Positions 4,658 to 29,531 of a DNA stretch of 32,000 bases are shown in pieces; position 1 is the stretch's first letter, and every line of letters begins with the position of its first letter. The notes under the pieces were generated by a model, which made no database searches, was not told where the DNA came from, and saw only the letters and a list, made by a program, of their open reading frames with translations. Location of the stretch: NCBI GenBank assembly GCA_001766815.1, contig LYOS01000001.1:300001-332000 (forward strand), in the 5' to 3' direction. Source of the stretch: Candidatus Syntropharchaeum caldarium. GTDB taxonomy: Archaea; Halobacteriota; Syntropharchaeia; Syntropharchaeales; Syntropharchaeaceae. The translations under genes were made by a program, and so were the position numbers.

Positions 4658-4680
4658 GAAATGAAGCTAAAAAAGACGAT

Positions 4681-4706
4681 CCGGGCGGAATCCCGGTTTT
4701 TATTTA
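4681..4706 (+). terminator. candidate terminator: short GC hairpin followed by a T-tract
   Basis: 'CCGGG-CGGAAT-CCCGG' (5-bp stem) is directly followed by 'TTTTTATTT', 24 nt after the paralog-2 stop. Confidence 0.35.
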
Positions 4707-4734
4707 ATTTGAATGAAGTAAGGAGGTATGGCGA

Positions 4735-6000: not shown

Positions 6001-6027
6001 GTGCTTTCCTTTTATCTTTATATCAAT

Positions 6028-7526: not shown

Positions 7527-7548
7527 TACGAACTGTACAGATAAGGAG

Positions 7549-9651: not shown

Positions 9652-12600
9652 AGATTGGATGCATCATGTGGAGCGGGTACATTGCAACAATGGCAGAGGC
9701 TGCACGTGAGCTTGACTTTCTTGAGATGAACCTCAAATCTCTGAAGGATCTTGAGGATGCAAGAAAGCGGGGTGAGTTTCTCGATTACCTTGAGAATGAA
9801 GCTGATGTAATCCTTGTGTTGCACTCAGGCTTCGACGGGACGCTCGATGAGATTCTATCCCAGGTCAAGGATAAGTTTATCATATCTTTTGGCTACACAG
9901 CCTCCTTCCTCTCTTCAAGAGTGAGTGCCAGGCAGGTAGGTATGATCTACCGTTACCTGAGACACGGTGGGATCGAGAACCATAAAAACGCTCTTACCTA
10001 TATCGCAAAGGAGTTCTTCGGGATCGATATTGAGGTTGAACCTCCAGCAGAGACGCCGTGGGATGGGATATATCACCCCAGGTCTCCTGTTCCTTTCTAC
10101 TCGATCGAGGATTATATCGAGTGGTATGGAGAGGAGCGGATGGGGAGAAATCCAACTGCTGGATTGATCTTCTACAAGACTCACCTTGTCATGGAGAATC
10201 CGGAGCTTGAAGATGCCATCATTGAGGCACTGGAAAAACGAGGGATCAACGTCATTCCGGTATTCTCATGGGGCTTTCCAAACCAGGAGCTTGGAATTAG
10301 GGAGAACCATGACGTCATTAACGATTACTTTATGAGAGATGGCAAACCCATCATAGATCTCCTGATCGATCTCCAATCCTCATTCCTGATACATACTGGT
10401 GATAGAAGTATTCTGGAAGAGATGGACGTCCCGATCATAAAGGGTGTGATCGTATATCATAGAAGTGAGGATGAGTGGCAGGATGATGAACATGGGCTTG
10501 GTGGTGAGCTTGTATGGTCGGTTGTCATGCCCGAGTTTGAGGGGATAATAGAGCCACTTGTTGCAGGTTCAAGGGTGAGAGAGGAGATAGGAGGAGGGAC
10601 ATTTGAACGCTTCTCTCCGATAGAAGAGCGAGTTTCTCATCTCGCAGATAGGGTTTTGAAGTGGGTCAATCTCAGGAAAAAACCAAAAATAGAGCGAAAG
10701 ATCGTGTTCATCCTTCATAACAATCCATGTTCAGGGCTTGAGGCAAACGTTGGTGGAGGATCAAACCTCGATACACTCGAGAGCGTCGTAAGGATTCTGA
10801 AAAGGATGAAAGAAGAGGGCTACTCGATAGAAGATATACCAGCTGATGGCAGAGAGCTTATAGATCGGATAATGGATAGAAAGGCAATATCAGACTTCAG
10901 GTGGACATCTGTTGATGAGATCGTTGAGAAAGGTGGTGCGATTTACCTTCTTGATGAAGAAGATTACAGGTCATGGTTTGATGGACTCCCCGCTGATGTT
11001 AGGGAGAGGATGATCGAAAGCTGGGGCACACCTCCAGGGAATGCGATGGTATATGATGGCAGAATCGTTATAACCGGGCTTGATCTTGGGAATGTGCTTG
11101 TTTGCACCCAGCCAAAGCGGGGATGTTATGGTGCAAGATGTGATGGAAGTGTCTGTAAGATCCTCCATGATCCAGATGTTCCACCAACACATCAGTATCT
11201 TGCGACATACAGGTTTTTTGAGAGGGTCTGGGGTGCGGACGGAATCGTGCACGTCGGCACGCACGGAAACATCGAGTTTCTACCAGGAAAGTCTGTTGGG
11301 CTTTCAGGAAGCTGTTATCCGGATATTGCGATTGGAAGTCTGCCCCACCTCTACATCTACTCGGTTGATAACCCTTCGGAAGGTATCGTTGCAAAGCGAA
11401 GGTCGTATGCGACACTTGTAGATTATATGCTCCCTGTGATGACCGCAAGCGGAACGTATGGAAAACTAAATGAGCTTGAGCAGCTTCTGGGAGAGTATGA
11501 GCTTGCAAAGGTGGGAGATCATGCAAGGGCGCATGCACTTGAGCATCTGTTACTTGAGGCGATCGATGAGGCGAATCTCGGTGATGAGATCGGATTTTCT
11601 GAGGAGATGGCATTTGAAGAGGTTGTAAAAATAACACATGATGCAATCTCGAGGATAAAAGGATCGCTTATAAACAGGGGGCTCCACATATTCGGAGAAG
11701 TTCCAGAGGGGGAAATGAAGGTTGAGCTTATAACATCGATGATACGTTTCGATGAGGATGTGAAGAAGCTCTTTGATAATGATCGGGATCGTCTCAGGGA
11801 GGCTGTATCAGGTATCCTTGAGGGTAAAGATGACGTGATCGCTCCCCAGGTTAAAGACATCTCAGAAAGGATCGATCGCTGCAAAAATGAGATCGATAAT
11901 CTTCTTCATGGATTTGACGGAGGTTACATAGAACCAGGACCCTCCGGACTTCCAACCCGGGGCAGGTGGGATGTGCTTCCCACAGGAAGAAACTTCTACA
12001 CACTCGATCCAACAAGAATTCCCACGAGGGCTGCATGGAGGGTTGGAAGGAAGCTTGCAACAGGTTTAATAGAAAAGTATGAGCGTGAGACTGGCAGGAT
12101 TCCTGAAAACTGCGGGATGATACTCTTCTCAACCGATATAACATGGGCAGATGGTGAGGAGCTTTCACAGATCTTTTACCTCATAGGCGTTGAACCTGAA
12201 TGGGATGAATCTGGAAGGGTCAACGGGTTCAGAATAATCCCGCTTGATGAGCTTGGAAGACCGAGGATCGATGTTACTGTGAGAATCAGCGGGATAATGA
12301 GAGATTCATTCATGCAGATCATTGAACTTCTCGATGAGGCGATAAGACGGGTTTCAGAGCTTGATGAACCCCCTGAGCTGAATTTTATTAGAAAGCATGC
12401 GCTGGCGCAGGCAAACGCAGGACAGGAGTGGTCGCGTGCTGCAACAAGGATATTTGGATCAAAGCCAGGGACGTACGGTGCAGGGGTTAACCTTGCGGTC
12501 AATGCATCGGCATGGAAAGATGAAGAGGATCTTGCTGATGTATTTGTTTACTGGAGTGGCTATGCCTATGGAAAAGGAATCGATGGTAAGGAATCACACG

Positions 12601-13280
12601 AGGAACTTTTGAATCAGCTTAAAACAGTTGATCTCTCCTTCAGATCCAACCCAACTGATGAGCATGATCTCTTCGGATGCTGCTGCTACTTCGGATATCA
12701 TGGAGGATTGACCGTTGCTGCACGCTCCCTTTCAGGGAAAGAGGTTAAGGCTTACCATGGTGATACGAGAGATCCTTCAGATGTACGGGTGACAGATCTC
12801 AAAGATGAGATAAAGCGGGTTGTGAGGACAAAGCTCCTCAATCCAAAGTGGATCGAGGGGATGAAGGAGCATGGATACAGGGGGGCGTCTGAGATCTCTG
12901 GCAAGGTTACAAGGGTTTATGGCTGGCAGGCAACCACGCGTGAGGTGGATGACTGGGTCTTCGATGATATAGCCCGGACGTATATTCTTGATGATGATAT
13001 GCGAGCGTTCTTTGAGGAGAACAACCCTTATGCACTTGAGGAGATGGGAAGAAGGCTACTGGAGGCTTATGAACGGGATCTCTGGGACCCTGATCCTGAA
13101 GTCTTGGATGAACTTAAGAGATACTACTTGGAGATCGAGGGATGGATCGAGGGGCGAATGGGAGGTGTCTCCGGGGTCCAGGGAGGATCGATCGATGTTT
13201 TTACGATGGAAGAGGTTGAGGAGTGGAAGGGAAAGATGGAGAAGGTTGCAAAATGGACAAAGGAAACAGATCTAAAGTGA
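9648..13280 (+). CDS. cobN: CobN/ChlH-family class I chelatase large subunit
   Basis: 1210 aa with the family motif '[15 protein letters not shown]' and a '[12 protein letters not shown]' region. It is coupled to the ChlID gene. The metal and tetrapyrrole substrates are unknown. Confidence 0.9.
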
Positions 13281-14368
13281 GCAGATCAGAGGTAAAAGAA
13301 GAATACAGAAGTTTTATCCGGCAGAGGATCCTCTTCGTCCTCATACTCCTTGTGATCACGCCACTTCTTGTGGGCTATGCTGCAACGCTTGGCTCCGCCG
13401 ATATATCTGTAAAGGCTGCCTATGATGCGATACTCCATAGGTTCTTCCCTGATCGTTTCAATCCTGCACCAACTGAAAAGCTTGATTCTGGTACGATCGT
13501 GACAATCCTCTGGACATTGCGACTTCCAAGGATCGTGCTTGGCATCCTTGCAGGGATCGGTCTTGCTCTTGCAGGAGCTGTGATGCAGGCGATACTCAAA
13601 AACCCCCTTGCATCTCCTTATACCTTAGGGATAGCATCGGCCGCATCCTTTGGTGCATCGCTTGCGATAATACTTGGGGTTGGATTGGTTGGAGGAGAAC
13701 ATCTCATCATCGCAAACGCCTTTATATTCGCGATGATCGCAGCGTTACTCATCTATCTGCTCTCGATAAAGAGAACCTCACCTGAGATGATGGTGCTTGC
13801 AGGTATTGCGATCATGTATCTATTCTCTGCGATGACCTCCTCACTCCAGTATATGGGAGAGGCAGAAGAGGTTCAGGAAGTGGTTTACTGGATGTTTGGA
13901 TCACTCGGCAGGGCAGACTGGGAATCATCGTTCCCGTATGGGAATATCGGGATCATCGCGATGGTACTTCTTGTCACAATCCCATATCTGCTCTTGAAGT
14001 CATGGGACCTCAATGCTTTAGGAGCAGGGGATGAGACCGCAAAGAGCCTCGGTGTGAGGGTTGAACGGATCAGAATAACCTGCATGTTCATCGCATCCTT
14101 TATAACAGCATCGATAATAGCTTTCACAGGCACGATCGGTTTCATAGGGCTTGTCTGCCCACATATAACAAGGATGATGATCGGATCTGATCACAGGTTT
14201 CTTCTACCTGGGACATGCCTCACAGGTGCGGTGCTCCTGCTTGCTACAGATACGGTTGCAAGAACGATTGTTGCACCTGTGATACTTCCTGTCGGAATCG
14301 TGACAGCTTTTATGGGTGTTCCGCTCTTTGTGTATCTTCTGATGAGGCAGAGGGGTGGTTACTGGTGA
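13277..14368 (+). CDS. FecCD-family (BtuC/FepD-like) ABC permease
   Basis: Multi-span hydrophobic protein with typical 'LRLPRIVLGILAGIGLALAGAVMQ' and 'GAGDETAKSLGV' motifs. The start is uncertain: the GTG at 13277 gives a GTGA overlap with the cobN stop, and ATGs at 13223 and 13253 are also in frame. Confidence 0.85.
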   Translation: MSRSEVKEEYRSFIRQRILFVLILLVITPLLVGYAATLGSADISVKAAYDAILHRFFPDRFNPAPTEKLDSGTIVTILWTLRLPRIVLGILAGIGLALAGAVMQAILKNPLASPYTLGIASAASFGASLAIILGVGLVGGEHLIIANAFIFAMIAALLIYLLSIKRTSPEMMVLAGIAIMYLFSAMTSSLQYMGEAEEVQEVVYWMFGSLGRADWESSFPYGNIGIIAMVLLVTIPYLLLKSWDLNALGAGDETAKSLGVRVERIRITCMFIASFITASIIAFTGTIGFIGLVCPHITRMMIGSDHRFLLPGTCLTGAVLLLATDTVARTIVAPVILPVGIVTAFMGVPLFVYLLMRQRGGYW

Positions 14369-15138
14369 AGCTTAAGATAAAAGATCTCACGTTCAGTTAT
14401 CCAGGCCATACGATACTTGATGGTATTACGGTCGAGATTGAGCCTTCAGAGTTCTTCGGTATCATAGGTCCAAACGGGACAGGTAAGACCACGCTCATAA
14501 AGTGCATCGACACAATCCTGAAGCCACACGGCGGTTGCGTCATGCTTGATGGAATGGAAGTGAGAGATCTTGATAAACGAGAGCTTGCAAGAAAGATCGG
14601 ATATGTTCCGCAGCATGCTCCAGGAGGCTTTCCTGCCACGGTATTTGATACGATTCTGATGGGAAGGCGTCCCTATATCGGATGGCGAGTCACGGAGAGC
14701 GATATTGATAAGGTTCTTGAGACCGTGGAACTTCTCGGGATAGAGGAGTTATCACTTCGCACCTTCAGTGAATTAAGCGGTGGTGAGCGGCAGAAGGTAC
14801 TGGTTGCCCGTGCACTCTGTCAGGACCCGGAAGTTCTCCTCCTGGATGAGCCGACATCCAATCTCGATATTAAGCACCAGCTTGAAGTCATGAAGATAAT
14901 ACAGACGATCACAAAAAAGCGTGGAATCCTGGCGATAATGGCGATCCATGATCTCAATTTAGCCTCCCGTTATGCAGACAGGGTCGCGATGATGCACGGG
15001 GGAAAGATTGCAGCGGTTGGTACGCCCGAGGATGTGCTAACCGTTGAGAACATAAGATCGGTCTATGGCGTTGAGGTCGCTGTCAGGAACGATGGGGGTA
15101 AGCCATATATTCTACCTATAAGACCTGTGGAAGTTTGA
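14365..15138 (+). CDS. FepC/BtuD-type ABC ATP-binding protein
   Basis: Walker A 'GPNGTGKTT', signature 'LSGGERQKV', Walker B 'VLLLDEPTSNLD', H-loop 'AIHDLN'. The GTG start at 14365 ('VKLKIKDLTF') overlaps the permease stop (GTGA). The track ORF from 14215 would lie inside the permease gene. Confidence 0.9.
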   Translation: MKLKIKDLTFSYPGHTILDGITVEIEPSEFFGIIGPNGTGKTTLIKCIDTILKPHGGCVMLDGMEVRDLDKRELARKIGYVPQHAPGGFPATVFDTILMGRRPYIGWRVTESDIDKVLETVELLGIEELSLRTFSELSGGERQKVLVARALCQDPEVLLLDEPTSNLDIKHQLEVMKIIQTITKKRGILAIMAIHDLNLASRYADRVAMMHGGKIAAVGTPEDVLTVENIRSVYGVEVAVRNDGGKPYILPIRPVEV

Positions 15139-15428: not shown

Positions 15429-16784
15429 ATGCCATACCCATATTTAAAAGATAGGGTTAGTCTATACAGTGACCGTGGAGAGGTCCTTGCGGAAGATGTA
15501 CCAATCGAAGCAATATCTCCTCTTCACAACCCAGGCGCACAGCAGGTGAAAGACACACTTTGCCGAACCATTCTCTGGAATGCAGAAGAAGCAGAGTATA
15601 AGATAAAGTCAGGGCACCTTGGGGATGAATATATCCACATACCGCGGACGCCATGGCTAGCAATGGAAGATTATGAAATCATGGCGAACATCGAGAAGAT
15701 CGCCAAGCGTGTCGAGGAACTTTTAAGGACAGCACCTGATGATGATACCGAGGTTCAGATACTGAGGGGAGGGCGTTATCTATTGGTTAGGCCACCAACA
15801 AGGCTTGCCTGGTGTGGTATTGAATACCAGACAGCACTGACGAACGTGGCTTACGCCATTGAGCAGGCGTGCGTTGATGTCTGTGATGCTGACTGGAGAA
15901 CATATCCATACATCCATGCCGCCATCTATGGGAGATTCCCGCAGACACCTGAGTATGACGGTTCATCACTCAGATGGATGCTGAAGCCTGTTATCGAGGA
16001 TGAAAACCCGGGCTATGCTCTCAGGAACATGCTGATCAACCATATTGCAGCATGTACAAGATCAAGAACACTTGAGGCTGCCGCCCTATGTTCGCTCCTT
16101 GAGACGATATCAGTTGTCGAGATGGGTGAAATGCTTGGACCATGGTACAGGCACTACCTAATGACGATGGCGTACCAGGGTTTCAATGGAAACGATCTCG
16201 TGCGAGATATACTGAAGGAATGCGGGCAGAACGGTACAATGGCAGATGTCGTTGCATATACGGTCGAGCGAATGATTGATGATGGCGTAATAAAGGAGAA
16301 GAAAACCTTCCCGTCTGGTTACAAGATGTATGAGAGTGTGGATGAGGATCTCAGACATGCCTACCTGTCTTCTGGTATGCTTGCAGCAACCATCGTGAAC
16401 TGTGGTTCAGCCAGGGCAGCACAGGGTGTCATGACCAGTATCTATTACTTCAATGACCAGATGGAAATGGAAACCGCACTGCCATGCACAGGATATGGTG
16501 TCTCGATGGGAACAGCTCTTGCATCAGGGTTCTTCTCGCACACGATCTACGGTGGTTCAGCGCCGGGTCTCTACTCAGGAAACCACGTCATCACCAAGAC
16601 AGGTAAGGTTTACTATATGCCATGTTATGCAGCAGCAGTTGCGATCGATGCTGGAACACAGACCTGGACACCCGAGATGACATCCGAGTTTGTCGGTGAC
16701 GTCTACTCAGAGATCGACATCATCCGTGAGCCGATGGAAGCTATCGCGGAAGGTGCGCTCGAGATAAAGAGTAAGTTTGAATGA
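15429..16784 (+). CDS. mcrB: methyl/alkyl-coenzyme M reductase beta subunit (divergent)
   Basis: The N-terminus 'DRVSLYSDRGEVLAEDVPIEAISPLHNP' matches the McrB consensus ('DLYDDRG..L...VPLEA.SPL.NP'). 'PGYALRNMLINH', 'GSARAAQGV' and 'GFFSHTIYGGSAPG' (beta Phe361/Phe362/Tyr367 region) are all present. The ATG at 15429 is preceded by 'GGAGGAATTAC'; the track ORF start at 15339 is rejected. Confidence 0.93.
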   Translation: MPYPYLKDRVSLYSDRGEVLAEDVPIEAISPLHNPGAQQVKDTLCRTILWNAEEAEYKIKSGHLGDEYIHIPRTPWLAMEDYEIMANIEKIAKRVEELLRTAPDDDTEVQILRGGRYLLVRPPTRLAWCGIEYQTALTNVAYAIEQACVDVCDADWRTYPYIHAAIYGRFPQTPEYDGSSLRWMLKPVIEDENPGYALRNMLINHIAACTRSRTLEAAALCSLLETISVVEMGEMLGPWYRHYLMTMAYQGFNGNDLVRDILKECGQNGTMADVVAYTVERMIDDGVIKEKKTFPSGYKMYESVDEDLRHAYLSSGMLAATIVNCGSARAAQGVMTSIYYFNDQMEMETALPCTGYGVSMGTALASGFFSHTIYGGSAPGLYSGNHVITKTGKVYYMPCYAAAVAIDAGTQTWTPEMTSEFVGDVYSEIDIIREPMEAIAEGALEIKSKFE

Positions 16785-16795
16785 GGTGATCTAAA

Positions 16796-17638
16796 ATGGG
16801 TGCTGAAGAAATTTTAAAGCAGCAGGTTGAAGCTGCCAAAGAAAGGATGGCAAAGCGAAAGTACCAGCGTCAGTATTACCCTGGAAGCACGATGGTTCCC
16901 GAAAACAGAAGGAAGTTCTATGATCCAATCAGGCCACTTGAGGTATTGAGAACGCTTACAGATGAGGACTTCCAGAACCTGCTTGGTTTCAGGGCGCTTG
17001 GACAGCGTTATCTCTCGGTTCACCCACCACTCGAGGAGATCGGTGAGCCAGACGATCCTATACGAGAGCTTGTCCCTGCAGATGCAGGTGCAAAGGCTGG
17101 TGATCGTATCACAACAATGGTGATGAGTGACTCACTGACACACCCGCTCATCGGTCCTTATACCAGAATCTGGATGTATCTTAATCGATTCAGGGGGATC
17201 GATGGCGCTTCATACTCTGCGCGAACAACGCTCGAGATGAGAGAGCGAGAGATGGAAGGTGTCTCTCGTGTCATCATCGAGGCCGAGTGCTTCGATCCTG
17301 CGAGGGATGCATTCAGGCAGTTCGGATGTACTGGGGCGTCATCCAGGCTTGACAAAAACGGGCTCTTCTTTGATCCGATGGCACGAATCGAATACGATCC
17401 TTCAACAGGACACTACATGCAGGTGAAGGACGGATTCGGCATTCCGCTGGATAAACCTGTCGATCTCGGTCCAACACTCCCTGAAGAAGAGAAGGCAAAG
17501 CGAAACGTCATGTACATGAATACAGATGGAAATCCTGTACTTGCAGGTCCTGAGTGGGAAGTACTGGTCGTCAAGCGAAGGATACAGGCGCTGAGGTTCC
17601 TTGCAGGGATGGGACCGTATAAGTTGAATGGTAAGTGA
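16796..17638 (+). CDS. mcrG: methyl/alkyl-coenzyme M reductase gamma subunit (divergent, approx. 25-aa N-terminal extension)
   Basis: 'QYYPGSTMVPENRRKF', 'SVHPPLEEIGEPDDPIRELV', 'GAKAGDR', 'YLNRFRG' and 'FDPAR' match McrG hallmarks. It is 280 aa versus the usual ~250 aa. Confidence 0.92.
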   Translation: MGAEEILKQQVEAAKERMAKRKYQRQYYPGSTMVPENRRKFYDPIRPLEVLRTLTDEDFQNLLGFRALGQRYLSVHPPLEEIGEPDDPIRELVPADAGAKAGDRITTMVMSDSLTHPLIGPYTRIWMYLNRFRGIDGASYSARTTLEMREREMEGVSRVIIEAECFDPARDAFRQFGCTGASSRLDKNGLFFDPMARIEYDPSTGHYMQVKDGFGIPLDKPVDLGPTLPEEEKAKRNVMYMNTDGNPVLAGPEWEVLVVKRRIQALRFLAGMGPYKLNGK

Positions 17639-17648
17639 GGTGATATGA

Positions 17649-19850
17649 ATGGCAGAAGAAATTAAACTTGATCCTGAACTTCTTGCAAAGCTCTGTGAGC
17701 GAAAGATACGATCATGGCAGACCGATAATGCAGAACTCCTGAAAGCTACCAGGGCCGATCTGACTGAAGCCGAGCGTGCAGAGCTTCTCGAGAAGATGTA
17801 TGACGATGAAGAGGCGCTCAAGAAGGTTTTCCAGACCATGGGAAATCCGCAAGTGGCTGTTGGGATGGAATTTACCAGAGAGGGAGGAGATATCAGTGAC
17901 GAGGAGATGAAGGAAATCTGTGATCGATGGGGACTCACAAGAGAAGAAGTCGATCAGATATGTGATGAACTCTGGATCTCCGAACGTGATATTGCAACCT
18001 GTCCTGGTTTCCTCTTCGGAAGAGGTGTTCCACATCCGGACCAGGGAGACACCCCCGAGGCTAAAGATGATCCAACCCAGTCGATCTGGTACCACCGCCT
18101 GATGAAGACACAGATGCAGCTTGCGATGCACGAGTATGGAACGTACCAGCGTGCGATGAATGAGTCGGTACTGGCAAAAGGTTTTGGCGTGGAAGATGTA
18201 CGCGAAGAGACAACCGAGTATCCAGCAGGAGGTATCAGTCAGGTTCCAGAGAAGCTTGAATATGTTAAGGTCTCAAAGGAGATCGAGAAGCAGCGTGGTA
18301 TCTCACTCTACAGACCACACCTGCACTGGCATGGTATCGAGCTTGGACAGAAGCCATACGTCAAGTGGAAGATAACCGCAACGCATATGCAGCGACCATG
18401 CAGGACTTTCGATGGTCTCTCGATGGAACAGATAAACTTCCTGAACAACGCAGCCTGCCACCAGTGGATGGCTGATGTCCAGCGGACACACATATTCGGT
18501 CTGGATCTTGCCCACAGAACGGTTGAGAGACGATTCGGTAAGGAGGTTACCCCTGACTCGATCAACCTGTACATGGAGATGCACAACCACAACATCGCAG
18601 CAGGTTCACTGATCATGGAACACATCGGTGAGACTGATCCAAGGCTTGTTGCAGACTCCTATGTCAAGATTATAACAGGCAACGAGGCGATGCTCGAGGT
18701 GCTCGATCCACAGTACATAATCGATGTGAGGCAACTCTTCCCCGAGTATCAGGCATCACAGATCATGAACCAGATCGGTGATAAGCTCTTTGAGGTTGCA
18801 CGTATCCCGACACTTATCACGATGATAGGTGATCACGGGACAACAAGAGGATGGACAGGACAGCAGGCATCACTTGCGTTCCTCTCAGCATACAGAATCC
18901 CTGCAGGTGAGGCAGTAACAAGTGACTTCGTCTATACGGTTAAGCATGGAGATAACATTTTCATGGGTAACAGGTTGCCATGGAGGCGTGCCAAGATGGT
19001 AAACAATCCTGGCGGTGTATCATTTGGATATGCAGCCGATATATCACAGGCATCACGAGCTCCTGAGTCACAGGATCCATTTGATCCAGTGAACGTCTTC
19101 CTCGAGAGTGTGGCATGGTCTGGATACTATGATATCGGGTATCTCCACAACTACCTTGCAGGCGGTTCATCTGGATGGACACAGGTCATGATCACCCAGG
19201 GCTACTGCTCAGATATCGACAACGACTTCTGTTACAGGACACTCGATGCTGATACAATGACCCACTTCATGGGACTTGACTTTGCACCAACAAGTATGGA
19301 CTCACTCTACACTGCAACTGAAGGTATCGTTAAGTACGGTATGGAGTACTTTGACAAGATGCCGATCGCTCAGGAAACACTCTACGGAGGGCTCCAGCGC
19401 GCAGCTCTGATCTCAGCAGTCGGAGGTGCATCCACGGCATACTTCTGCAGAACTCCAACCTTTGGACTGCCTGGATTCTACCACGGTCTCCTGCTTTGTA
19501 AGGAAGGCTGGAACAGGCTCGGATTCTATGCATCCGATGGTCCACACCAGCAGGGAACATTCCATGCATACACCCTCATCGGTGAGTATGGAGGTCCACT
19601 TGAGTTAAGAGGTCCAAACTACCCAGACTACAACTGGTCAGTCGCACATCTTGGTATATACACTGCATACGTCAATGGGCCACACTTCCTCTGTGGACAT
19701 GGATACTCATGCAACCCGATCGTACACGGAGCATTCGCAGATCCATCGCTACTCTTTGACTTTGCCCACGTAAGAAGAGAGGTTGCAAGAGGAGCGGTCC
19801 ATGAGTTTATGCCCGCAGGTGAGCGTGACGTCGTTATACCGGCACACTGA
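17649..19850 (+). CDS. mcrA: methyl/alkyl-coenzyme M reductase alpha subunit, highly divergent (733 aa; long N-terminal extension; altered active-site motifs)
   Basis: Conserved McrA blocks: 'FLNNAACHQWMADVQRT', 'RRFGKEVTPDSINLY', 'VARIPT', 'VKHG...LPWRRAK..NPGGVSFGY', 'GGLQRA', 'RLGFY', 'ELRGPNYPDY', 'NPIVHGAFAD', 'EFMPAGERDVVIPA'. The first canonical block (KRGIP.YNPD-like 'KQRGISLYRP') only starts at residue ~214. Confidence 0.93.
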   Translation: MAEEIKLDPELLAKLCERKIRSWQTDNAELLKATRADLTEAERAELLEKMYDDEEALKKVFQTMGNPQVAVGMEFTREGGDISDEEMKEICDRWGLTREEVDQICDELWISERDIATCPGFLFGRGVPHPDQGDTPEAKDDPTQSIWYHRLMKTQMQLAMHEYGTYQRAMNESVLAKGFGVEDVREETTEYPAGGISQVPEKLEYVKVSKEIEKQRGISLYRPHLHWHGIELGQKPYVKWKITATHMQRPCRTFDGLSMEQINFLNNAACHQWMADVQRTHIFGLDLAHRTVERRFGKEVTPDSINLYMEMHNHNIAAGSLIMEHIGETDPRLVADSYVKIITGNEAMLEVLDPQYIIDVRQLFPEYQASQIMNQIGDKLFEVARIPTLITMIGDHGTTRGWTGQQASLAFLSAYRIPAGEAVTSDFVYTVKHGDNIFMGNRLPWRRAKMVNNPGGVSFGYAADISQASRAPESQDPFDPVNVFLESVAWSGYYDIGYLHNYLAGGSSGWTQVMITQGYCSDIDNDFCYRTLDADTMTHFMGLDFAPTSMDSLYTATEGIVKYGMEYFDKMPIAQETLYGGLQRAALISAVGGASTAYFCRTPTFGLPGFYHGLLLCKEGWNRLGFYASDGPHQQGTFHAYTLIGEYGGPLELRGPNYPDYNWSVAHLGIYTAYVNGPHFLCGHGYSCNPIVHGAFADPSLLFDFAHVRREVARGAVHEFMPAGERDVVIPAH

Positions 19851-19864
19851 GGAGGTAGTTAAAA

Positions 19865-20395
19865 ATGGTACTAACATTTGCATCACCCGAATGGTGTGAG
19901 GCTATAGGGAAGAGTATCAGCGAGGGACCACACAGTCACTGGTTCAAGTCATGTATGGAGGATCTCAAGGCAGGACTTGGTATCGGTGAGATTACGATGG
20001 TTGCAAGAGCGACTGATGCTAACGTCGCACTGGTCTGCGAGCTTACAACCGATGGTTGCAAGAACTGCTACATGACAACAGATCCTGATAGTGTACCAGA
20101 TGTCTTTATCGAGCTTTCTGGGACGCTGCACTCATGGCTCTCCGTACTCTGCGGACTCCAGCCAACATTTACAACGCTGGTTGGCCCCGTCTCATCGGAT
20201 ATCGACCGCAGGATCAACATAACGAAGTTTGCGGGAGGAATGGAAAATATCCCTTCACAGATCATGAAACCACTACCGTTGAACCTGCTGTACGCAGTCA
20301 CGCATGCTATAAAGGATGTCTGCATAGGACCAACCGATGTGACAGAGGTTCCAGGTGTGAATCTGGATATACTGATGGGCAGGGTGCACCACTAA
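19865..20395 (+). CDS. hypothetical protein, possibly SCP2-like hydrophobic-ligand-binding fold
   Basis: 176 aa, starting 14 nt after mcrA with a GGAGG RBS. The pattern 'SPEWCEAIGKSI...', a central 'ELTTDGCKNCYMTTDPD..PDVFIELSGTLHSWLSVLCG.L.P' and a helical tail resemble SCP2-type domains. This is a weak by-eye call with no similarity to McrC or McrD. Confidence 0.35.
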   Translation: MVLTFASPEWCEAIGKSISEGPHSHWFKSCMEDLKAGLGIGEITMVARATDANVALVCELTTDGCKNCYMTTDPDSVPDVFIELSGTLHSWLSVLCGLQPTFTTLVGPVSSDIDRRINITKFAGGMENIPSQIMKPLPLNLLYAVTHAIKDVCIGPTDVTEVPGVNLDILMGRVHH

Positions 20396-20408
20396 GGAGG
20401 GATGTTAA

Positions 20409-20822
20409 ATGACTGTTGACAAACCAGAACGAGAAACAGAGATCGCGGGACACAAGGTGAGGATCTACCCGGATCCATCATACCCGAGGCTCTCATGGGA
20501 AGAGGACTACGGCGCACCTGGACATAAGTTCCAGCTCAAAGGTGCAAACGCAGCAGGTCCATGTATTGTGAAGTGTCCAACCTGTGGACACACAATGCGC
20601 AAGTGGCACCTGCCGGGGAAGGCGTTCATCGTGCCACCTGACAGGAAGATCGCAAAGACCGTCTTTGAGTACTGTTCAAAGTGCGGCTCTATTATCGTCC
20701 TGAATGGTGTGCTTGCATCACCATGGGTTTCACCGGAACGTGTCAAGTGTCCCTACGACCTGAGCATAAAGAAGTTCAGTAAGCAGGAAAGAGAAGTTTT
20801 GCCAGACGATAGAGGGTGGTAA
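20409..20822 (+). CDS. small zinc-ribbon protein (4-Cys), function unknown
   Basis: 137 aa with 'CPTCGH' ... 'CSKCGS' about 35 residues apart. An AAGGAGG RBS is present, 13 nt after the preceding stop. Confidence 0.6.
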   Translation: MTVDKPERETEIAGHKVRIYPDPSYPRLSWEEDYGAPGHKFQLKGANAAGPCIVKCPTCGHTMRKWHLPGKAFIVPPDRKIAKTVFEYCSKCGSIIVLNGVLASPWVSPERVKCPYDLSIKKFSKQEREVLPDDRGW

Positions 20823-20828
20823 TACCCC

Positions 20829-20846
20829 TCTTTCTTTTATTTTTGT
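20829..20846 (+). terminator. T-rich tract, possible partial or attenuating archaeal terminator inside the operon
   Basis: 'CTTTCTTTTATTTTTG' lies directly after the zinc-ribbon gene stop. It is the only oligo-T intergenic tract between mcrB and the end of the operon. Confidence 0.25.
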
Positions 20847-20855
20847 GAGGTTTTG

Positions 20856-21365
20856 ATGGACGACGAACTCGATGAAATACGGCAGAAGAAGCTTGATGAG
20901 CTGACAGAAAAGATGGGAATCCAGGTGATGCAGAAGAAAGAGCGTAAGGTGGAGGAAGATGATGGTGGAATCTATGATCTTGTACTTCCCGGATGGATAC
21001 CACCATGGGTTGCAGAGAAGATTGCTCCCGAGGTGGGTGTTGAGCTTGTGGAGCGAAAGATACAGGGAGTGGTAACAGATCCTGAGACAGGTGCACCATC
21101 TGATATGATGAAGATGGCGCTGTGCATCAGGGGATCGCTTAACGACATAGAACGATTCAAAATGGCAGCGGTTGAACAGCTCAAGCAGTTTATGAAGAGT
21201 ACAAGTGAGCGAAAACTCACAGAACCATCAAGCTGGTGGAAACACTATCATATCGACGAATGGGATGATGTCAGAAAGAACAAGAACTATGACCCTGATG
21301 AAGAATGGAAGAGGTTTAAGAAAGCGGGGTTGGATAAATTCAACATTGAAGAAGTTTTTAAATGA
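20856..21365 (+). CDS. acidic hypothetical protein
   Basis: 169 aa from the ATG at 20856 (the track starts at an adjacent TTG, 20853). The N-terminal helix 'DDELDEIRQKKLDEL' is reminiscent of PDCD5-like proteins, but the rest is unrecognised. The C-terminus is Trp/Asp-rich. Confidence 0.55.
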   Translation: MDDELDEIRQKKLDELTEKMGIQVMQKKERKVEEDDGGIYDLVLPGWIPPWVAEKIAPEVGVELVERKIQGVVTDPETGAPSDMMKMALCIRGSLNDIERFKMAAVEQLKQFMKSTSERKLTEPSSWWKHYHIDEWDDVRKNKNYDPDEEWKRFKKAGLDKFNIEEVFK

Positions 21366-21368
21366 TAG

Positions 21369-22946
21369 ATGCAACTGCTTAAATTAAAAAATGTATCACT
21401 TGTTCTGAATGAAACAGAGTTACTTAGCTGTTTAAATTTTGAGATCAATGAGCAGGATATCATTGGTATCACTGGCAGGCGTGGTGCTGGAAAAAGCCTG
21501 CTACTACATCTGATAAAAGGGGTCGAGGGATACGAACCTGTAGCAGGAGAGATACGCTATCACATACGTTTCTGTGAAAGATGTAAACGTGTGGAGTTAC
21601 CTTCAAAGCCCACCTGTCCGATCTGCCACTCGCAGATGGAATTGCTCGATATAGACCTGCATGCTGATAAACAGATCCATGACGCGATAAAAAGACGTGT
21701 AGGACTGATGTTTCAGAAGACACAGGCACTCTTCTCATTCAGAACTGTGGAGGAGAATATACTCGAAGCCCTCAGAACAGCAAAGTTCCCATATGAGATG
21801 CGGGATGAGCGTACCCGTGAGATCATCGAGATGATGAATATAACACATAGAAGGGAGTTTGCCTGTATGGATTTGAGCTGTGGTGAGAAGCAACGGGTAA
21901 TAGTTGGGAGACTCATCGCACTCGACCCGCTCCTGATGCTCCTTGATTCGCCAGAAAGTTTCCTTGATCCTTTAACCACCTCGATGATCTGCAGTGCGAT
22001 ACGTGCTGCAGGTCTCACGGTTATGATGAGTTCATCGAGACCTCAAATATTCGAAGGTATCGCTGACAGGATACTTTTTCTCGATAAAGGAAAGATTGAG
22101 CAGTTTGACAGGGTCGATCCAGAGATGTTTGTGCAATCCACGCAATTAACTCCCACGCAAAGATCAGAAGGGGCGCCCCTCATACGGCTTAAAGGCGTAT
22201 GTAAGTACTATGCCATGCCGGTAAACCTCTACAGCAAAGAAGCGACGCATGTCAGGGCGGTTGACGATCTTGATATCACAATCCAGCGGGGTGAGATACA
22301 CGGGCTTGTGGGTGTAAGTGGATCTGGAAAGAGCACGATTCTCAAGATTATCTGGGGAGATGAGAAGACAAAAGATTTTAGGGGTAACTGCGAGTTCACA
22401 TTCACTGATGGAAGATATCGCCTGGATAGTCTGGAGGCGATCGCTCGTGCACGTACTCACATCTCATATCTTGGTCAGGACTCGTGTCTAATTCCATCCC
22501 GTACGATCTTCGATAACCTGAAGTCCTTTATCGCTGAAGATAAATTGCGGGAAGCAGCAATCGATAATGCTATGGAAGTCTTACTGCGCTTTGGATTTAG
22601 TGAGGAGGAGGTGCTCTCGCTCTATGATCGATTGCCATCTGAGATCAGTGCAGGTGAGGCACAGTTAATACTTATATCGATGGCAATTCTCCGCGATCCG
22701 GAGGTGATCCTGCTCGATGATCCCACATCTGCACTTGATGCTCAATCTGCAGCAAAACTTGCAGACGTGATACTTCAGATCAGAGCTACGTGTGGAACCT
22801 CGTTCCTCATAGCTTCAAACGACACCGATCTTCTTACAATATGTGATCATATTGATCTGATTCAGGAAGGACGCATGGCATACTGTGGCACGTCTCTCAA
22901 TGAATGCCTTAAGATCATGGACATAAACAATTCCCAAAGCTTATAA
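21369..22946 (+). CDS. atwA: methyl-coenzyme M reductase system component A2-like protein (tandem ABC ATPase domains)
   Basis: 525 aa with two ABC domains. The first is 'GITGRRGAGKSLLLHLIKGVEGYEPVAGEIRYHIRFCERCKRVELPSKPTCPICHS', that is, Walker A followed by the Cys4 insert remembered as typical of component A2. Signatures are 'LSCGEKQRV' and 'ISAGEAQLI'. The second Walker A is 'GVSGSGKST'. Confidence 0.8.
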   Translation: MQLLKLKNVSLVLNETELLSCLNFEINEQDIIGITGRRGAGKSLLLHLIKGVEGYEPVAGEIRYHIRFCERCKRVELPSKPTCPICHSQMELLDIDLHADKQIHDAIKRRVGLMFQKTQALFSFRTVEENILEALRTAKFPYEMRDERTREIIEMMNITHRREFACMDLSCGEKQRVIVGRLIALDPLLMLLDSPESFLDPLTTSMICSAIRAAGLTVMMSSSRPQIFEGIADRILFLDKGKIEQFDRVDPEMFVQSTQLTPTQRSEGAPLIRLKGVCKYYAMPVNLYSKEATHVRAVDDLDITIQRGEIHGLVGVSGSGKSTILKIIWGDEKTKDFRGNCEFTFTDGRYRLDSLEAIARARTHISYLGQDSCLIPSRTIFDNLKSFIAEDKLREAAIDNAMEVLLRFGFSEEEVLSLYDRLPSEISAGEAQLILISMAILRDPEVILLDDPTSALDAQSAAKLADVILQIRATCGTSFLIASNDTDLLTICDHIDLIQEGRMAYCGTSLNECLKIMDINNSQSL

Positions 22947-22970
22947 GGACGTGCAAACAATTACCTAACT

Positions 22971-23561
22971 ATGGTTCTTAAAGTTGACTTTGAAGAGATA
23001 GCAATGGGTAAGGGTGTCTATCCAACGCTGGCGGTGGGTGTACGCATCGAGAGTCCTGAACCATTTCAGGTTGTAGAACTCTTAAGCTGTGTGTGCACGA
23101 TCGAGACTGCTTTTAACGAAGAATCGATGATATTTCTGGGGTACGCACCGATCAGAGACTATCCGCAGATTGCAGAACATGCGCTTGTTGCGTTTGACAT
23201 TGAGCTCGATGGAAGAAAGCTTGCAACCATTGAAGAGCTGCGTGATGGCGGCGATCTCTGGTTACGTCTTGGAGGCGTCATGAAATATGCTGTCCTCTAT
23301 GAGCCAACAGAGTTTGGGTACGATAAGACGAAAGTTGTAAGGGATACCTTCGTGGTCAGGCAATTTGGACAGGCAAGAATACGTGTCGAGAAGGAAGAGT
23401 GGGAAAATTATCTATCGTTCCTCGCGCTCAAGCGAACAGTGTTGCTTGACACAGATACCATCACAAAGCTCGATAAGGTAAGGCCCATGATAAATCCTGA
23501 GTATGAGGACAGGGACATCATCAACGAATTGCTGGAGATGTATCTGAAGAAAAAAATTTAA
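22971..23561 (+). CDS. hypothetical protein
   Basis: 196-aa ORF, co-oriented, 24 nt after the A2-like gene and 9 nt before the chaperonin-like gene. No recognisable motif. Confidence 0.55.
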   Translation: MVLKVDFEEIAMGKGVYPTLAVGVRIESPEPFQVVELLSCVCTIETAFNEESMIFLGYAPIRDYPQIAEHALVAFDIELDGRKLATIEELRDGGDLWLRLGGVMKYAVLYEPTEFGYDKTKVVRDTFVVRQFGQARIRVEKEEWENYLSFLALKRTVLLDTDTITKLDKVRPMINPEYEDRDIINELLEMYLKKKI

Positions 23562-23570
23562 GGAGAAGCA

Positions 23571-25370: not shown

Positions 25371-26701
25371 GCCCGATGCTCTTTCACGATCCGTGTAACA
25401 AGAACTGCTTCCCTGCTTGGGTCTTTCAATCCTGAAAGCACCTTTTTATATTTTTTATCAGTCAGCGCAGAGGGTAGTGGGGATGCTGCGATCGCAGTGA
25501 GATATAACTCCAGCATTCTGCGCTCTGCCACGGTGAGATTGTGTCGCTTCCCGATTCTGGTATCATCCATCTTAAGTACCGGATTCTCATCGTCATCAAG
25601 TTCCATGACCCGTGCTGCAAGCGCAGTGCCAGGGATGGGTGATGCTATGTTGACGAATACTTCCTCGAGCATCAGCTCACCGATCAGCTCTTTTGTGGCT
25701 TCATGGTCATCCTCAGTCTCGCCAGGATAGCCTGTGATAAACGCACCGATTACCATCCTGATGCCGCAATCACGCGCCATTTCGACAGCTTCGATGATAC
25801 GATCCACGTTTATCCCCTTATTCATCTCATTAAGGATGCGGTTGCTGCCTGACTCGATGCCAAAGGAGATGTAGCCTGCTGTATAGTCACGGATCGCCTC
25901 AAGTGCATGTTCTGAGACCATATCCACCCTGACATCAGCACACTTTACGTTCTTTGGGCCAAGGATACCACTCACTGTTTTGAGCAGTTCTGTGAAGGCG
26001 ATCTCGTTCAGACCCTTATCCCAGCCGTATTGTGTCACGGTCTCAAGTCCAAGCCCGATGCTCTCTATTCCGTGTTTTTTCAGGAGTTTGACCTCTTTCA
26101 CGATCTCTTCCAGTGGTCTCGATCTTATATCACTGCCAAAGAGTCGATGAGCGAGACAGAAGCTGCACCTCCCACCACATCCCCTGTGCGTCTCGATTGC
26201 GGTTGAAACACCGCGCATATCATGATGTTTAAGATCTGGTGGTATGAACGGCATCGAGCGCTTCTCGATCTCAAAAGGCTTTCTCGATCCGGTTACAACG
26301 ACCTCACCATCATGAACGAAGGCAATTCCCTCGATACCTTCAGGATCTTTCACTCCTGCTCTGACTGCATCCAGGAGTTCAGGTGTTGTCTCCTCTCCTT
26401 CTCCGATTACAACGAAATCGATCTCAGGCAGGTACTCAAAGATCAGTTCAGGTACAAGTGAGAGTGAACCTCCTGCTATAATCAGCGGTGGATTGATGCC
26501 ATGTTTTATCTTGAAGAGTTCTGCTTTCAGATCCAGAAGGTGCGTGGTTGCACCAAGACTTAAACCCAGCACATCTGTCTCAAGCGACCAGTCAAAGGCT
26601 TTTCTGATCTCAACTTTATAACCCTCATCATGCAGGGTCCCACCTATAACCATGGCACCGTACGCATAAAAATCTGGAGATATAAGTGTTATCTTCTTCA
26701 T
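25352..26701 (-). CDS. B12-binding-domain radical SAM protein (class B radical SAM, COG1032-like)
   Basis: An N-terminal Rossmann-like B12-binding domain ('KITLISPDFYAYGAMVIGGTL...IIAGGSL') is followed by the CX3CX2C motif 'GCGGRCSFC'. 449 aa. The 3' end overlaps the convergent chaperonin-like gene by 19 nt. Confidence 0.85.
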   Translation of the reverse strand: MKKITLISPDFYAYGAMVIGGTLHDEGYKVEIRKAFDWSLETDVLGLSLGATTHLLDLKAELFKIKHGINPPLIIAGGSLSLVPELIFEYLPEIDFVVIGEGEETTPELLDAVRAGVKDPEGIEGIAFVHDGEVVVTGSRKPFEIEKRSMPFIPPDLKHHDMRGVSTAIETHRGCGGRCSFCLAHRLFGSDIRSRPLEEIVKEVKLLKKHGIESIGLGLETVTQYGWDKGLNEIAFTELLKTVSGILGPKNVKCADVRVDMVSEHALEAIRDYTAGYISFGIESGSNRILNEMNKGINVDRIIEAVEMARDCGIRMVIGAFITGYPGETEDDHEATKELIGELMLEEVFVNIASPIPGTALAARVMELDDDENPVLKMDDTRIGKRHNLTVAERRMLELYLTAIAASPLPSALTDKKYKKVLSGLKDPSREAVLVTRIVKEHRAQSFFQ

Positions 26702-29417: not shown

Positions 29418-29531
29418 GAACTTCTCTTCAGAATCCAATCTATTAAGGTTTACGGTTTACTCAAGTTATTGAGCATGGTTTTTGAGTTTCCTTTTTAACT
29501 ACCTGTAACGTATGCAGTTCTGGAGTGACCT

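Follow-up and report, generated by a model that had tools for sequence, protein, structure and literature searches.

Positions 15429-19850 (+ strand) of the window, the whole 32,000-nucleotide stretch of DNA that was analysed, carry an mcrBGA-type operon for a three-subunit (beta, gamma, alpha) enzyme of the MCR family, which we identify, with a probability of roughly 0.85, as the fourth, ECR-related alkyl-CoM reductase (ACR) of Ca. Syntrophoarchaeum caldarius (OFV68674-OFV68676). The three subunits are full-length and under purifying selection. ACRs determine the substrate range of archaeal anaerobic alkane oxidation, and to our knowledge the ethyl-CoM reductase (ECR) is the only ACR with a solved structure. 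The enzyme described here appears intermediate between ECR and the other ACRs, combining a predicted Met-ligated cofactor site with the tyrosine loss typical of C3+ enzymes, and it is devoid of the glycine bearing the otherwise universal thioamide. It hence offers a useful natural test case for the residues that select alkane size, the role of the Met ligand and the need for thioglycine. The operon comprises the following features:

15429-16784, + strand: ACR beta subunit, 451 aa (OFV68674.1; Pfam MCR_beta_N and MCR_beta)
16796-17638, + strand: ACR gamma subunit, 280 aa (OFV68675.1; Pfam MCR_gamma)
17649-19850, + strand: ACR alpha subunit, 733 aa (OFV68676.1; Pfam MCR_alpha_N and MCR_alpha)
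17649-18173, + strand: clade-specific N-terminal extension of alpha, residues 1-175 (SD motif, dN/dS, orthologue conservation)

All five MCR domains of Pfam were detected across the three subunits, with E-values of 1e-17 to 1e-93 and scores far above the gathering cut-offs, and a phmmer search against PDB chains ranked the ECR structure 7B1S first for each of them, in agreement with the original prediction that the three adjacent open reading frames are relatives of McrB, McrG and McrA. An alkyl-CoM-reductase-type operon without mcrC or mcrD had also been proposed, and among the open reading frames of the window that were scanned, none indeed gave a Pfam or NCBIfam match to McrC or McrD. The gene order is BGA, and the locus departs from the canonical mcrBDCGA type by Met323, Ala628 and Val513 in alpha and by the missing McrC/McrD domains. 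From the beta gene to a thermosome-like gene downstream, the genes form a packed array with gaps of 3-30 nt, most of them preceded by an SD-like motif.

The enzyme and its divergence were already known from the literature. The beta, gamma and alpha subunits are exact matches of OFV68674.1, OFV68675.1 and OFV68676.1 (Ca. S. caldarius, Butane50 culture, 2016), and proteins of the window match OFV68670-OFV68683 exactly, on a 491,986-bp contig of this organism. Published trees already include OFV68676.1, termed 'the distant homolog' (PMC6478937), and a 2022 review reported the axial Met of this protein, the exchange of Met480 for Trp and the conserved methyl-Gln site, and called the N-terminal extension "suspicious" (PMC9118554). 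The earlier suggestion of an undescribed MCR-family clade is thus not supported. What the present comparison adds is modest: comparative evidence for a real extension, a pair of conserved partner genes that includes an SCP2-like one, and the re-annotation of two neighbouring genes as an MgmA homologue and as MCR component A2-like, respectively.

The beta gene is preceded by an SD motif (GGTGGAGG) upstream of its ATG at 15429. Its product matches ECR beta best (7b1s_B, 1.7e-127) and retains the 'FFSHTIYGG' segment with betaPhe361 and betaTyr367, while its alignment contains no counterpart of the 16-residue ECR insertion (7b1s_B residues 74-89). The gamma subunit, whose best match is ECR gamma (7b1s_C, 1.9e-76), bears a Lys/Glu-rich N-terminal extension of 22 residues, keeps an Arg at the gammaArg120 position, displays an ECR-like Tyr at gammaLeu117, and has a loop eight residues shorter than that of 7b1s_C.

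The catalytic core of alpha spans residues 176-733, and the best PDB matches of this subunit are ECR (7b1s_A, 6.6e-151) followed by the M. marburgensis MCR (1.3e-128). Residues were mapped through a HMMER alignment to the latter (3POT_A), in which the relevant blocks are ungapped and whose chain index equals the literature numbering, since Gln147 falls at index 147. Eight positions are changed (Q147->M323, F330->W510, Y333->V513, G445->A628, D450->H633, C452->Q635, M480->W663 and N481->S664), and H257 (H433), R270/R271 (R446/R447), Q400 (Q583) and F443/Y444 are kept. The corresponding codons are:

18615-18617 (M323, ATG), 19176-19178 (W510), 19185-19187 (V513, GTC), 19395-19397 (Q583) and 19530-19532 (A628, GCA), + strand
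19545-19547 (H633), 19551-19553 (Q635), 19635-19637 (W663) and 19638-19640 (S664), + strand

Met323 aligns, in ungapped blocks, with the Met of the ECR 'MMEH' motif and with Gln147 of MCR, so that Met takes the place of the Gln that is the lower ligand of the F430 Ni in MCR, as in the crystallised ECR. A one-residue gap lies beside V513, and neither way of placing it offers a Tyr. These alignments reproduce the residue assignments of the original prediction, namely Met323 at the axial position, Trp510, Val513, Ala628, His633, Gln635 and Ser664, together with the retained methyl-His, Arg270/271 and methyl-Gln positions, and translation confirmed the codon coordinates it gave for Met323, Val513 and Ala628.

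The binding residues that we checked are kept for both CoB (alpha Arg270 and His257) and CoM (beta Phe361 and Tyr367, gamma Arg120). Of the conserved coenzyme-binding residues of the superfamily (these, alpha Arg271 and alpha Tyr333), only alpha Tyr333 is changed (Val513), a residue that other accepted ACRs lack as well. Tyr333 is in fact absent from every non-ECR divergent homologue aligned. At Gly445, a Methanosuratincola homologue has Ala and one labelled Methanomassiliicoccales has Ser, and the Gly is apparently replaced in OFV65745 of S. butanivorans too. The loss of these two residues had been thought to go beyond described ACRs; it proved to be common in multi-carbon ACRs for Tyr333 and to occur in a few divergent homologues for Gly445. 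The whole substitution set is fixed in all three known members of the clade, including orthologues at 88% and 62% identity, and the alpha core evolves with a dN/dS of 0.10. Gly445->Ala, Asp450->His and Asn481->Ser all lie near the CoB channel, and together they could alter more than the size of the cavity.

Translation of alpha from the ATG at 17649 is supported by an SD motif, GGTGAT, 4 nt upstream (5 nt, 17644-17648, if the GAGGTG core is counted), which sits inside the 10-nt gap between the gamma stop and the alpha ATG. Relative to the 88% orthologue, the extension has a dN/dS of 0.19 (residues 1-86: 0.24); in the 62% orthologue the extension is 50% identical, with a near-invariant ER.ELL.KM..DEEALKKV block. 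Judged on these coding signatures, we consider the 175-residue extension to be genuine coding sequence. No homologue of it was found outside the clade among 1.84 billion representatives searched, and its AlphaFold2 (AF2) model is helical, with low confidence (pLDDT 49).

The clade is rare, with three distinct sequences in the collections searched. In a neighbor-joining tree, this three-member clade and the GoM-Arc1 ECR clade each received a bootstrap value of 1.0 and their union 0.99, which places OFV68676-type enzymes as the sister group of GoM-Arc1 ECRs, outside the ECR clade itself. Published trees leave OFV68676 out of the Syntrophoarchaeum/Bathyarchaeia/Helarchaeota ACR cluster (PMC6478937).

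Downstream of alpha, the array continues with six genes and is faced by a seventh on the opposite strand:

19865-20395, + strand: orf176 (OFV68677.1, annotated hypothetical), predicted SCP2-like fold, clade-specific partner gene
20409-20822, + strand: orf137 (OFV68678.1, annotated hypothetical), four-Cys zinc-ribbon protein, clade-specific partner gene
20853-21365, + strand: orf170 (OFV68679.1 from the ATG at 20856, 169 aa), conserved in the window and in loci L002, L003 and L010
21369-22946, + strand: divergent MCR component A2-like double ABC ATPase (OFV68680.1, annotated YejF; TIGR03269)
22971-23561, + strand: orf196 (OFV68681.1), conserved in L003 and L010
23571-25370, + strand: divergent thermosome-like chaperonin subunit (OFV68682.1), final gene of the tightly packed array
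25352-26701, - strand: B12-dependent radical SAM enzyme of the MCR glutamine C-methyltransferase family, MgmA (OFV68683.1; TIGR04014)

orf176 lies directly 3' of alpha in the window and in the orthologous loci L002 and L001; the ECR loci L004-L009 contain no match to it. No Pfam family, SCP2 included, matched its product; its AF2 model (mean pLDDT 62; core at residues 5-97 with pLDDT ~80 and pTM 0.64) retrieved with Foldseek the putative sterol carrier protein 1WFR as best PDB match (E 1.9e-5, probability 1.0, TM 0.52/0.61), followed by further SCP2 domains. orf137 follows orf176 in each of the three loci and is 50-80% identical between them, with invariant CPTCG...C.KCG motifs and a C-terminal PDDRGW, its Pfam matches being limited to weak zinc-ribbon hits. 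Profile searches found no family for orf170, which was not seen in L001, or for orf196. The ATPase, which begins 3 nt past orf170, scores 342.6 bits against TIGR03269 (met_CoM_red_A2), under the cut-off of 517.1. The thermosome-like gene begins 9 nt past orf196, with an SD motif, and its product scores 434 bits against NF041083 (cut-off 400) and 438 bits against TIGR02339, under the cut-off of 671. Gene neighbourhood and one medium-confidence structure model suggest that four products of the operon, the SCP2-like, zinc-ribbon, A2-like and thermosome-like proteins, probably help this particular enzyme to handle its substrate, to assemble or to become active.

The MgmA homologue, annotated in GenBank merely as 'radical SAM protein', reaches 461.5 bits against TIGR04014 (cut-off 360), which fits the retention of Gln583 at the 2-methyl-Gln400 position; it probably methylates this residue. 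Immediately upstream of the operon lie genes for a class I chelatase (ChlID-like and CobN) and a corrinoid-type ABC transporter, which do not adjoin the orthologous operon in L001. They could supply cobalamin to the B12-dependent MgmA.

We propose that the enzyme would act like other ACRs, as an alpha2-beta2-gamma2 assembly with F430 or a modified F430, reversibly converting an alkane and the CoM-S-S-CoB heterodisulfide into alkyl-S-CoM and HS-CoB, and of the pair of tyrosines that sit over the Ni, one is Val here, as in C3+ ACRs. Because the ECR beta and alpha insertions are missing, the gamma loop is shorter and Tyr is changed to Val, the putative substrate is likely a short alkane larger than ethane, that is propane or butane, both of them substrates of the source culture, and either would be a likelier substrate than ethane, which the Butane50 consortium is reported not to oxidise (PMC9118554). 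Ca. S. caldarius accounts for ~2% of the cells of the culture, where its role is described as unclear (PMC11543930), and the substrate range of the culture therefore says little about this enzyme. Ethane, which the original prediction had considered, is at best weakly supported, given the absent beta and alpha insertions, the shorter gamma loop and a source culture reported not to oxidise ethane.

That the operon encodes a true ECR, an ethane-specific orthologue of the GoM-Arc1 enzymes, would accord with 7B1S being, for each subunit, the nearest relative of known structure, with the sister position to the ECR clade, and with the shared Met axial ligand, Trp330, Gln400 and 'GGSSGW' insertion. 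We nevertheless regard it as unlikely: the enzyme branches outside the ECR clade, all five ECR-clade sequences retain the Tyr333 and Gly445 that are changed here, the beta and 13-residue alpha insertions, which a review calls ethanotroph-specific (PMC9118554), are lacking and the gamma loop is shorter, and the source consortium is reported not to oxidise ethane (PMC9118554). The absence of the alpha insertion is not decisive in itself, because three GoM-Arc1-like ECR homologues (P0003, P0104 and P0105) lack it too. A more tentative extension of our assignment, possible though doubtful, is that OFV68676-type enzymes form a distinct ACR subtype and not merely a divergent relative of ECR, with an alpha domain of their own, two partners that could be a carrier of hydrophobic ligands (SCP2-like) and a zinc-ribbon protein dedicated to the holoenzyme, and an active site that could be rewired by the missing Tyr333, the Ala in place of the thioglycine and the His at 450. 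Such enzymes would receive or select their substrates in a way unlike both the ECR tunnel and other ACRs, and a homologue may be present in a basal ANME-1c lineage, a lineage not known to carry ACRs.

Five active-site-proximal changes beyond ECR are fixed in the clade (Y333V, G445A, D450H, M480W and N481S), and with the unique 175-residue alpha domain, the clade-specific partner genes and the chelatase and transporter genes directly upstream, they could be read as signs of a tetrapyrrole with another modification or metal, of a substrate that is not an alkane, or of an enzyme dedicated to forming alkanes. Such altered chemistry is quite improbable, as every single change is also found in some other ACR (PMC9118554 and our alignment), the coenzyme-binding alpha Arg270, Arg271 and His257, gamma Arg120 and beta Tyr367 are kept, and the chelatase and transporter genes, not being beside the L001 operon, could serve the cobalamin supply of MgmA. 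Least credible of all is a decaying or non-catalytic paralogue among four ACR sets: despite the rarity of the clade (three distinct sequences in the collections searched) and the loss of Tyr333 and of the otherwise strictly conserved thioglycine Gly, the dN/dS values of core and extension are low (0.10 and 0.19), reading frames and SD motifs are intact, orthologues at 62-88% identity share the same substitutions, and the partner genes are conserved.

Compared with known systems, the ECR-related ACR described here has its best solved relative, for all three subunits, in the ECR of Ca. Ethanoperedens thermophilum (7B1S/7B2C), and its alpha core is ~40-47% identical to GoM-Arc1-clade homologues (P0003, P0104-P0107). 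The features that it shares with ECR are the Met below the Ni, Trp330, the Gln where MCR has 2-methyl-Gln, the one-residue 'GGSSGW' insertion and the gamma Tyr at 117. The Met ligand is present in the Ca. E. thermophilum enzyme and not in that of Ca. A. ethanivorans. Ethane-specific activity and dimethyl-F430 are further marks of an ECR in the strict sense, and the scan of the window showed no methyltransferase of the CobM type. Unlike ECR, it lacks the 16-residue beta insertion and the 13-residue alpha insertion (that of Ethanoperedens/Argoarchaeum-type ECRs), its gamma loop is eight residues shorter, and it differs at five alpha positions (Tyr333->Val, Gly445->Ala, Asp450->His, Met480->Trp and Asn481->Ser) and by the 175-residue alpha domain and the 22-residue gamma extension; according to the review, the loop insertions in alpha, beta and gamma occur in ethanotrophs specifically and build the entry of the hydrophobic ethane tunnel (PMC9118554). 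The SCP2-like and zinc-ribbon genes were not found within 10 kb of the ECR genes in loci L004-L009.

With other ACRs of the Syntrophoarchaeum, Bathyarchaeia and Helarchaeota type (e.g., S. butanivorans OFV65745.1), to which its identity is ~33-35%, the enzyme shares the mcrBGA order without mcrC or mcrD. Those of S. butanivorans come from the same genus, and throughout this type Tyr333 is likewise unconserved and Gly445 not always conserved. Unlike the enzyme described here, these other ACRs have kept the axial Gln and lost Gln400 and Phe330/Trp. Canonical MCR I (M. marburgensis, 3POT/5A0Y) belongs to the same three-subunit family (alpha E 1.3e-128) and has in common His257, Arg270/271, Gln400, Phe443, Tyr444, beta Phe361/Tyr367 and gamma Arg120, whereas the present enzyme differs by the eight alpha substitutions (147, 330, 333, 445, 450, 452, 480 and 481), a BGA rather than BDCGA order and a long alpha N-terminal extension.

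Three adjacent genes encode the MCR-family enzyme in the order beta, gamma and alpha, and a Pfam profile search places all five MCR domains within 15429-19850, in agreement with the original prediction of B, G and A genes:

15429-16784, forward strand: beta subunit (Pfam MCR_beta_N and MCR_beta)
16796-17638, forward strand: gamma subunit (Pfam MCR_gamma)
17649-19850, forward strand: alpha subunit (Pfam MCR_alpha_N and MCR_alpha)

For the beta gene, the start at 15429 was favored over the longest-ORF start (15339) because GGTGGAGG lies just upstream of the ATG, residue 5 onward aligns with residue 3 onward of ethyl-CoM reductase (ECR) beta, and the resulting protein equals the GenBank entry. 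All three products match deposited Candidatus Syntrophoarchaeum caldarius proteins exactly (alpha, OFV68676.1; gamma, OFV68675.1; beta, OFV68674.1), and the genes around the operon correspond to OFV68670-OFV68683 on one 491,986-bp contig of this organism, whose source, the Butane50 enrichment, was reportedly described in 2016. When all PDB chains were searched with phmmer, the top match of every subunit was 7B1S, the ECR crystal structure from Ca. Ethanoperedens thermophilum (alpha 6.6e-151, beta 1.7e-127, gamma 1.9e-76), with the canonical MCRs ranking behind. None of the ORFs scanned in the window matched a McrC or McrD model, as anticipated. Downstream ORFs considered as McrC or McrD in disguise did not match the Pfam models MCR_C and MCR_D with the threshold relaxed to E ≤ 10.

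The enzyme itself is already known. OFV68676 has been called ‘the distant homolog’ among four Syntrophoarchaeum MCR-like enzymes (PMC6478937), and a 2022 structural review (PMC9118554) reported for OFV68676.1 the Gln→Met axial substitution shared with the Ca. E. thermophilum enzyme, the retained (methyl-)Gln400 position, the replacement of Met480 by Trp and a ‘suspicious’ N-terminal extension, 86 residues ahead of the next Met. The main surprise, an ECR-like Met ligand, is therefore on record, and the idea of an undescribed clade fails since OFV68674-OFV68676 have been discussed in print; the reading of the sequence as an alkyl-CoM reductase (ACR) with this ligand and further active-site changes was right. 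In the literature searched, no passage naming Gly445→Ala, Tyr333→Val or Asp450→His was found; the alignment figure of PMC9118554 spans these positions. The present analysis adds little beyond this: evidence that the N-terminal domain is real coding sequence, two clade-specific partner genes, better names for the radical SAM and ‘YejF’ genes, and a hint concerning ANME-1c.

The window alpha was aligned with 3POT_A, the M. marburgensis MCR alpha chain, whose index was equated with the literature numbering because Gln147 falls on index 147. The key-residue blocks were ungapped.

Active-site positions of M. marburgensis MCR alpha and their counterparts in the window alpha
Gln147 (axial ligand): Met323
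His257: His433, kept
Arg270/271: Arg446/447, kept
Phe330: Trp510
Tyr333: Val513
Gln400: Gln583, kept
Phe443/Tyr444: both kept
Gly445 (thioglycine): Ala628
Asp450: His633
Cys452: Gln635
Met480: Trp663
Asn481: Ser664

The substitutions foreseen at Gln147, Phe330, Tyr333, Gly445, Asp450, Cys452 and Asn481 are thus confirmed, as is the retention of the His257, Arg270/271 and Gln400 positions, and the codons assigned to Met323, Val513 and Ala628 translate as expected. A one-residue gap adjoins Val513, and neither alignment choice supplies a Tyr. The Phe361/Tyr367 motif of beta is intact (‘FFSHTIYGG’), and gamma keeps the Arg of the Arg120 position and carries an ECR-like Tyr in place of Leu117. Judged from these alignments, most coenzyme-anchoring residues are kept, and Met is the axial ligand, a feature shared with ECR. 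By analogy, the presence of Ala628 alone would not preclude a backbone thioamide, since YcaO/TfuA thioamidation in RiPPs acts on non-Gly residues.

Relatives of this alpha subunit are rare in the collections searched. One orthologue, 88% identical, comes from a JGI metagenome and shares a 90%-identity cluster with GenBank RLG35499.1; another, 62% identical, lies on a 10-kb contig of a MAG labeled Ca. Methanospirareceae. A word-based protein search found no further members of this three-member clade, and an exhaustive search of representatives yielded one 50%-identity cluster for it. Two scans of GTDB species genomes, among whose representatives the S. caldarius genome is apparently absent, returned GoM-Arc1 ECR loci only and no new members, and a JGI metagenome scan gave just one contig, which was near-identical. 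Outside the window, two weak distant matches (P0038 and P0083) have odd MCR_alpha architectures, one being a 740-residue pentapeptide-repeat and MCR_alpha fusion and the other a 1012-residue AAA/TPR protein ending in a C-terminal fragment of MCR_alpha; these may be chimeras produced by assembly or genuine fusions.

Phylogenetic placement, originally suggested as a check, was performed by neighbor joining on 17 alpha sequences and 539 core columns (the window, its two orthologues, five GoM-Arc1 ECR-type sequences, S. butanivorans OFV65745, several divergent homologues and a canonical-type outgroup). The window sequence joined its two orthologues (bootstrap 1.0), and this clade, with OFV68676 already in the literature, grouped with the ECR clade (1.0; union of both, 0.99). 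Identity of the alpha core to ECR-type sequences is about 40-47%, and full-length identity to other ACRs is 33-35%. All three members carry Met, Trp, Val, Ala, His, Gln, Trp and Ser at positions 147, 330, 333, 445, 450, 452, 480 and 481, whereas Tyr333, Gly445, Asp450 and Met480 are kept in the ECR clade (5/5 sequences). Independent orthologues carry exactly these substitutions, and dN/dS is low (alpha core vs the 88% orthologue, 0.10), on which grounds a pseudogene or sequencing error as their source was rejected; the ACR genes are, on these sequence comparisons, under purifying selection. The losses of Gly445 and Tyr333 had been thought to go beyond described ECRs and ACRs. Tyr333 is replaced in every aligned divergent homologue outside the two clades, while Gly445 is Ala in a Methanosuratincola homologue, Ser in a Methanomassiliicoccales-labeled one and apparently Ile in S. 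butanivorans OFV65745, where the alignment is less certain. From these replacements, Tyr333 loss appears typical of multi-carbon ACRs, and loss of the thioglycine Gly appears uncommon, not unique.

The N-terminal extension of alpha deserves separate treatment, as residues 1-86 were doubted in PMC9118554, whereas the comparative data favor coding. The start codon (ATG, 17649) follows the gamma stop by 10 nt and has GGTGAT 4 nt ahead of it, a layout also found at the beta-to-gamma junction, and comparison with the 88% orthologue gives dN/dS values of 0.24 (residues 1-86) and 0.14 (residues 87-175). The extension is 50% identical in the 62% orthologue, which shares the near-invariant block ER.ELL.KM..DEEALKKV and the conserved block EEMKE.C..WG.T.E.V..ICDE.W.SE.D, and the ORF including it is continuous in all three orthologues. 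Start layout, dN/dS, conserved blocks and unbroken frame together argue that the extension is a real, translated coding sequence. It had no match outside the clade among 1.84 billion representatives, and its AF2 model is helical, unreliable (pLDDT 49) and too poor for a fold search. The gamma subunit also begins with a Lys/Glu-rich extension of 22 residues (16796-16861) that is lacking from ECR and MCR gamma chains.

From beta through a thermosome-like gene (15429-25370), nine genes follow one another with gaps of 3-30 nt and SD-like motifs before most. Past alpha, the order is orf176, orf137, orf170, an A2-like double ABC ATPase, orf196 and a divergent thermosome subunit, with a convergent gene beyond. 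L001 and L002 below are the locus of the 62% orthologue and a further orthologous locus:

19865-20395 (L002, 2577-3107; L001, 8295-8777): orf176, hypothetical protein OFV68677.1, directly after alpha
20409-20822 (L002, 3121-3534; L001, 8791-9162): orf137, 137 residues, always after orf176
21369-22946: A2-like double ABC ATPase, deposited as ‘YejF’ (TIGR03269, 342.6 bits, under the cut-off of 517.1)
23571-25370: divergent thermosome subunit with an N-terminal extension of roughly 40 residues
25352-26701, reverse strand: ‘radical SAM protein’ OFV68683.1 (TIGR04014, 461.5 bits vs a cut-off of 360)

Both orf176 and orf137 lie downstream of alpha in 3/3 orthologous loci and had no match within 10 kb of the ECR genes in six GoM-Arc1 loci; on this gene context, they are predicted to be clade-specific partner genes. 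The AF2 model of orf176 (core pLDDT ~80, pTM 0.64) has as its best PDB match in Foldseek the putative sterol carrier protein 1WFR (E 1.9e-5, probability 1.0, TM 0.52/0.61), followed by AF1534 SCP2, alkylsulfatase SCP2-like domains and UbiJ-SCP2. The protein is thus probably SCP2-like and might carry hydrophobic ligands for the ACR; no SCP2-ACR connection was found in the literature searched. As for orf176 being McrD, no McrD-described chain occurs among the 50 Foldseek matches listed, and SCP2 is indicated instead. The conserved product of orf137 has a four-Cys zinc ribbon (CPTCG...C.KCG), and PDDRGW is invariant at its C terminus. The ‘YejF’ gene would be better named A2-like, and its product and the thermosome subunit may be paralogues that specifically activate or fold the ACR.

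The OFV68683.1 gene is convergent to the ACR array, sharing 19 nt with the 3′ end of the thermosome-like gene. TIGR04014 is the MCR glutamine C-methyltransferase family (MgmA), and a name of MgmA type would suit this protein better and fits the retained Gln583, the Gln of the Gln400 position being lost in most other Syntrophoarchaeum ACRs (PMC9118554). Also downstream are genes for a UbiX-type flavin prenyltransferase (26708-27316, reverse strand) and the 4-HFC-P synthase MfnB of methanofuran biosynthesis (28716-29438, reverse strand), both consistent with a methanogen-derived C1 pathway in the host. Directly 5′ of the ACR operon, a block (7549-15138 and 2050-7526) encodes a class I chelatase (ChlI/D-like fusion and CobN), BtuC/BtuD-like ABC proteins, three tandem Peripla_BP_2 binding proteins and an ABC-2 exporter. 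Its gene content suggests uptake and insertion of a tetrapyrrole or metal, and it was left out of the ACR system because it is not adjacent to the orthologous operon in L001. A methyltransferase at 1097-1918, considered as shared with the gene after the L001 operon, proved unrelated to it. No structured RNAs or tRNAs were found in the window.

The 62% orthologous BGA operon with its two partner genes occupies 3813-9162 of JBTNFS010000193.1 (GCA_054798995.1). This 10-kb contig, from the MAG labeled Ca. Methanospirareceae (ANME-1c), shows the same active-site substitutions and the orf176/orf137 homologues. To our knowledge, ANME-1 are described in the literature as lacking ACRs, and the locus reflects either misbinning or an ACR that has been overlooked in a basal lineage of ANME-1.

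The enzyme would be an alpha2-beta2-gamma2 F430-type alkyl-CoM reductase, reversibly forming alkyl-S-CoM from an alkane and CoM-S-S-CoB. A non-methane alkane, possibly ethane, had been proposed as substrate; the first part agrees with this assignment, whereas propane or butane seems a more likely substrate than ethane. The smaller Val takes the place of one of two tyrosines over the Ni, as in C3+ enzymes, the clade falls outside the ECR clade, and the source consortium is reported to use propane and butane, not ethane (PMC9118554), with the caveat that Ca. S. caldarius makes up ~2% of its cells and that its role has been called unclear (PMC11543930). Comparison with ECR points the same way: the window enzyme has no counterpart of ECR beta residues 74-89 or of a 13-residue loop in ECR alpha, the alpha insertion being missing from three ECR-type sequences as well, and the ECR gamma loop is longer than that of the window gamma, the ECR insertions having been described as ethanotroph-specific and as making up the tunnel entry (PMC9118554).
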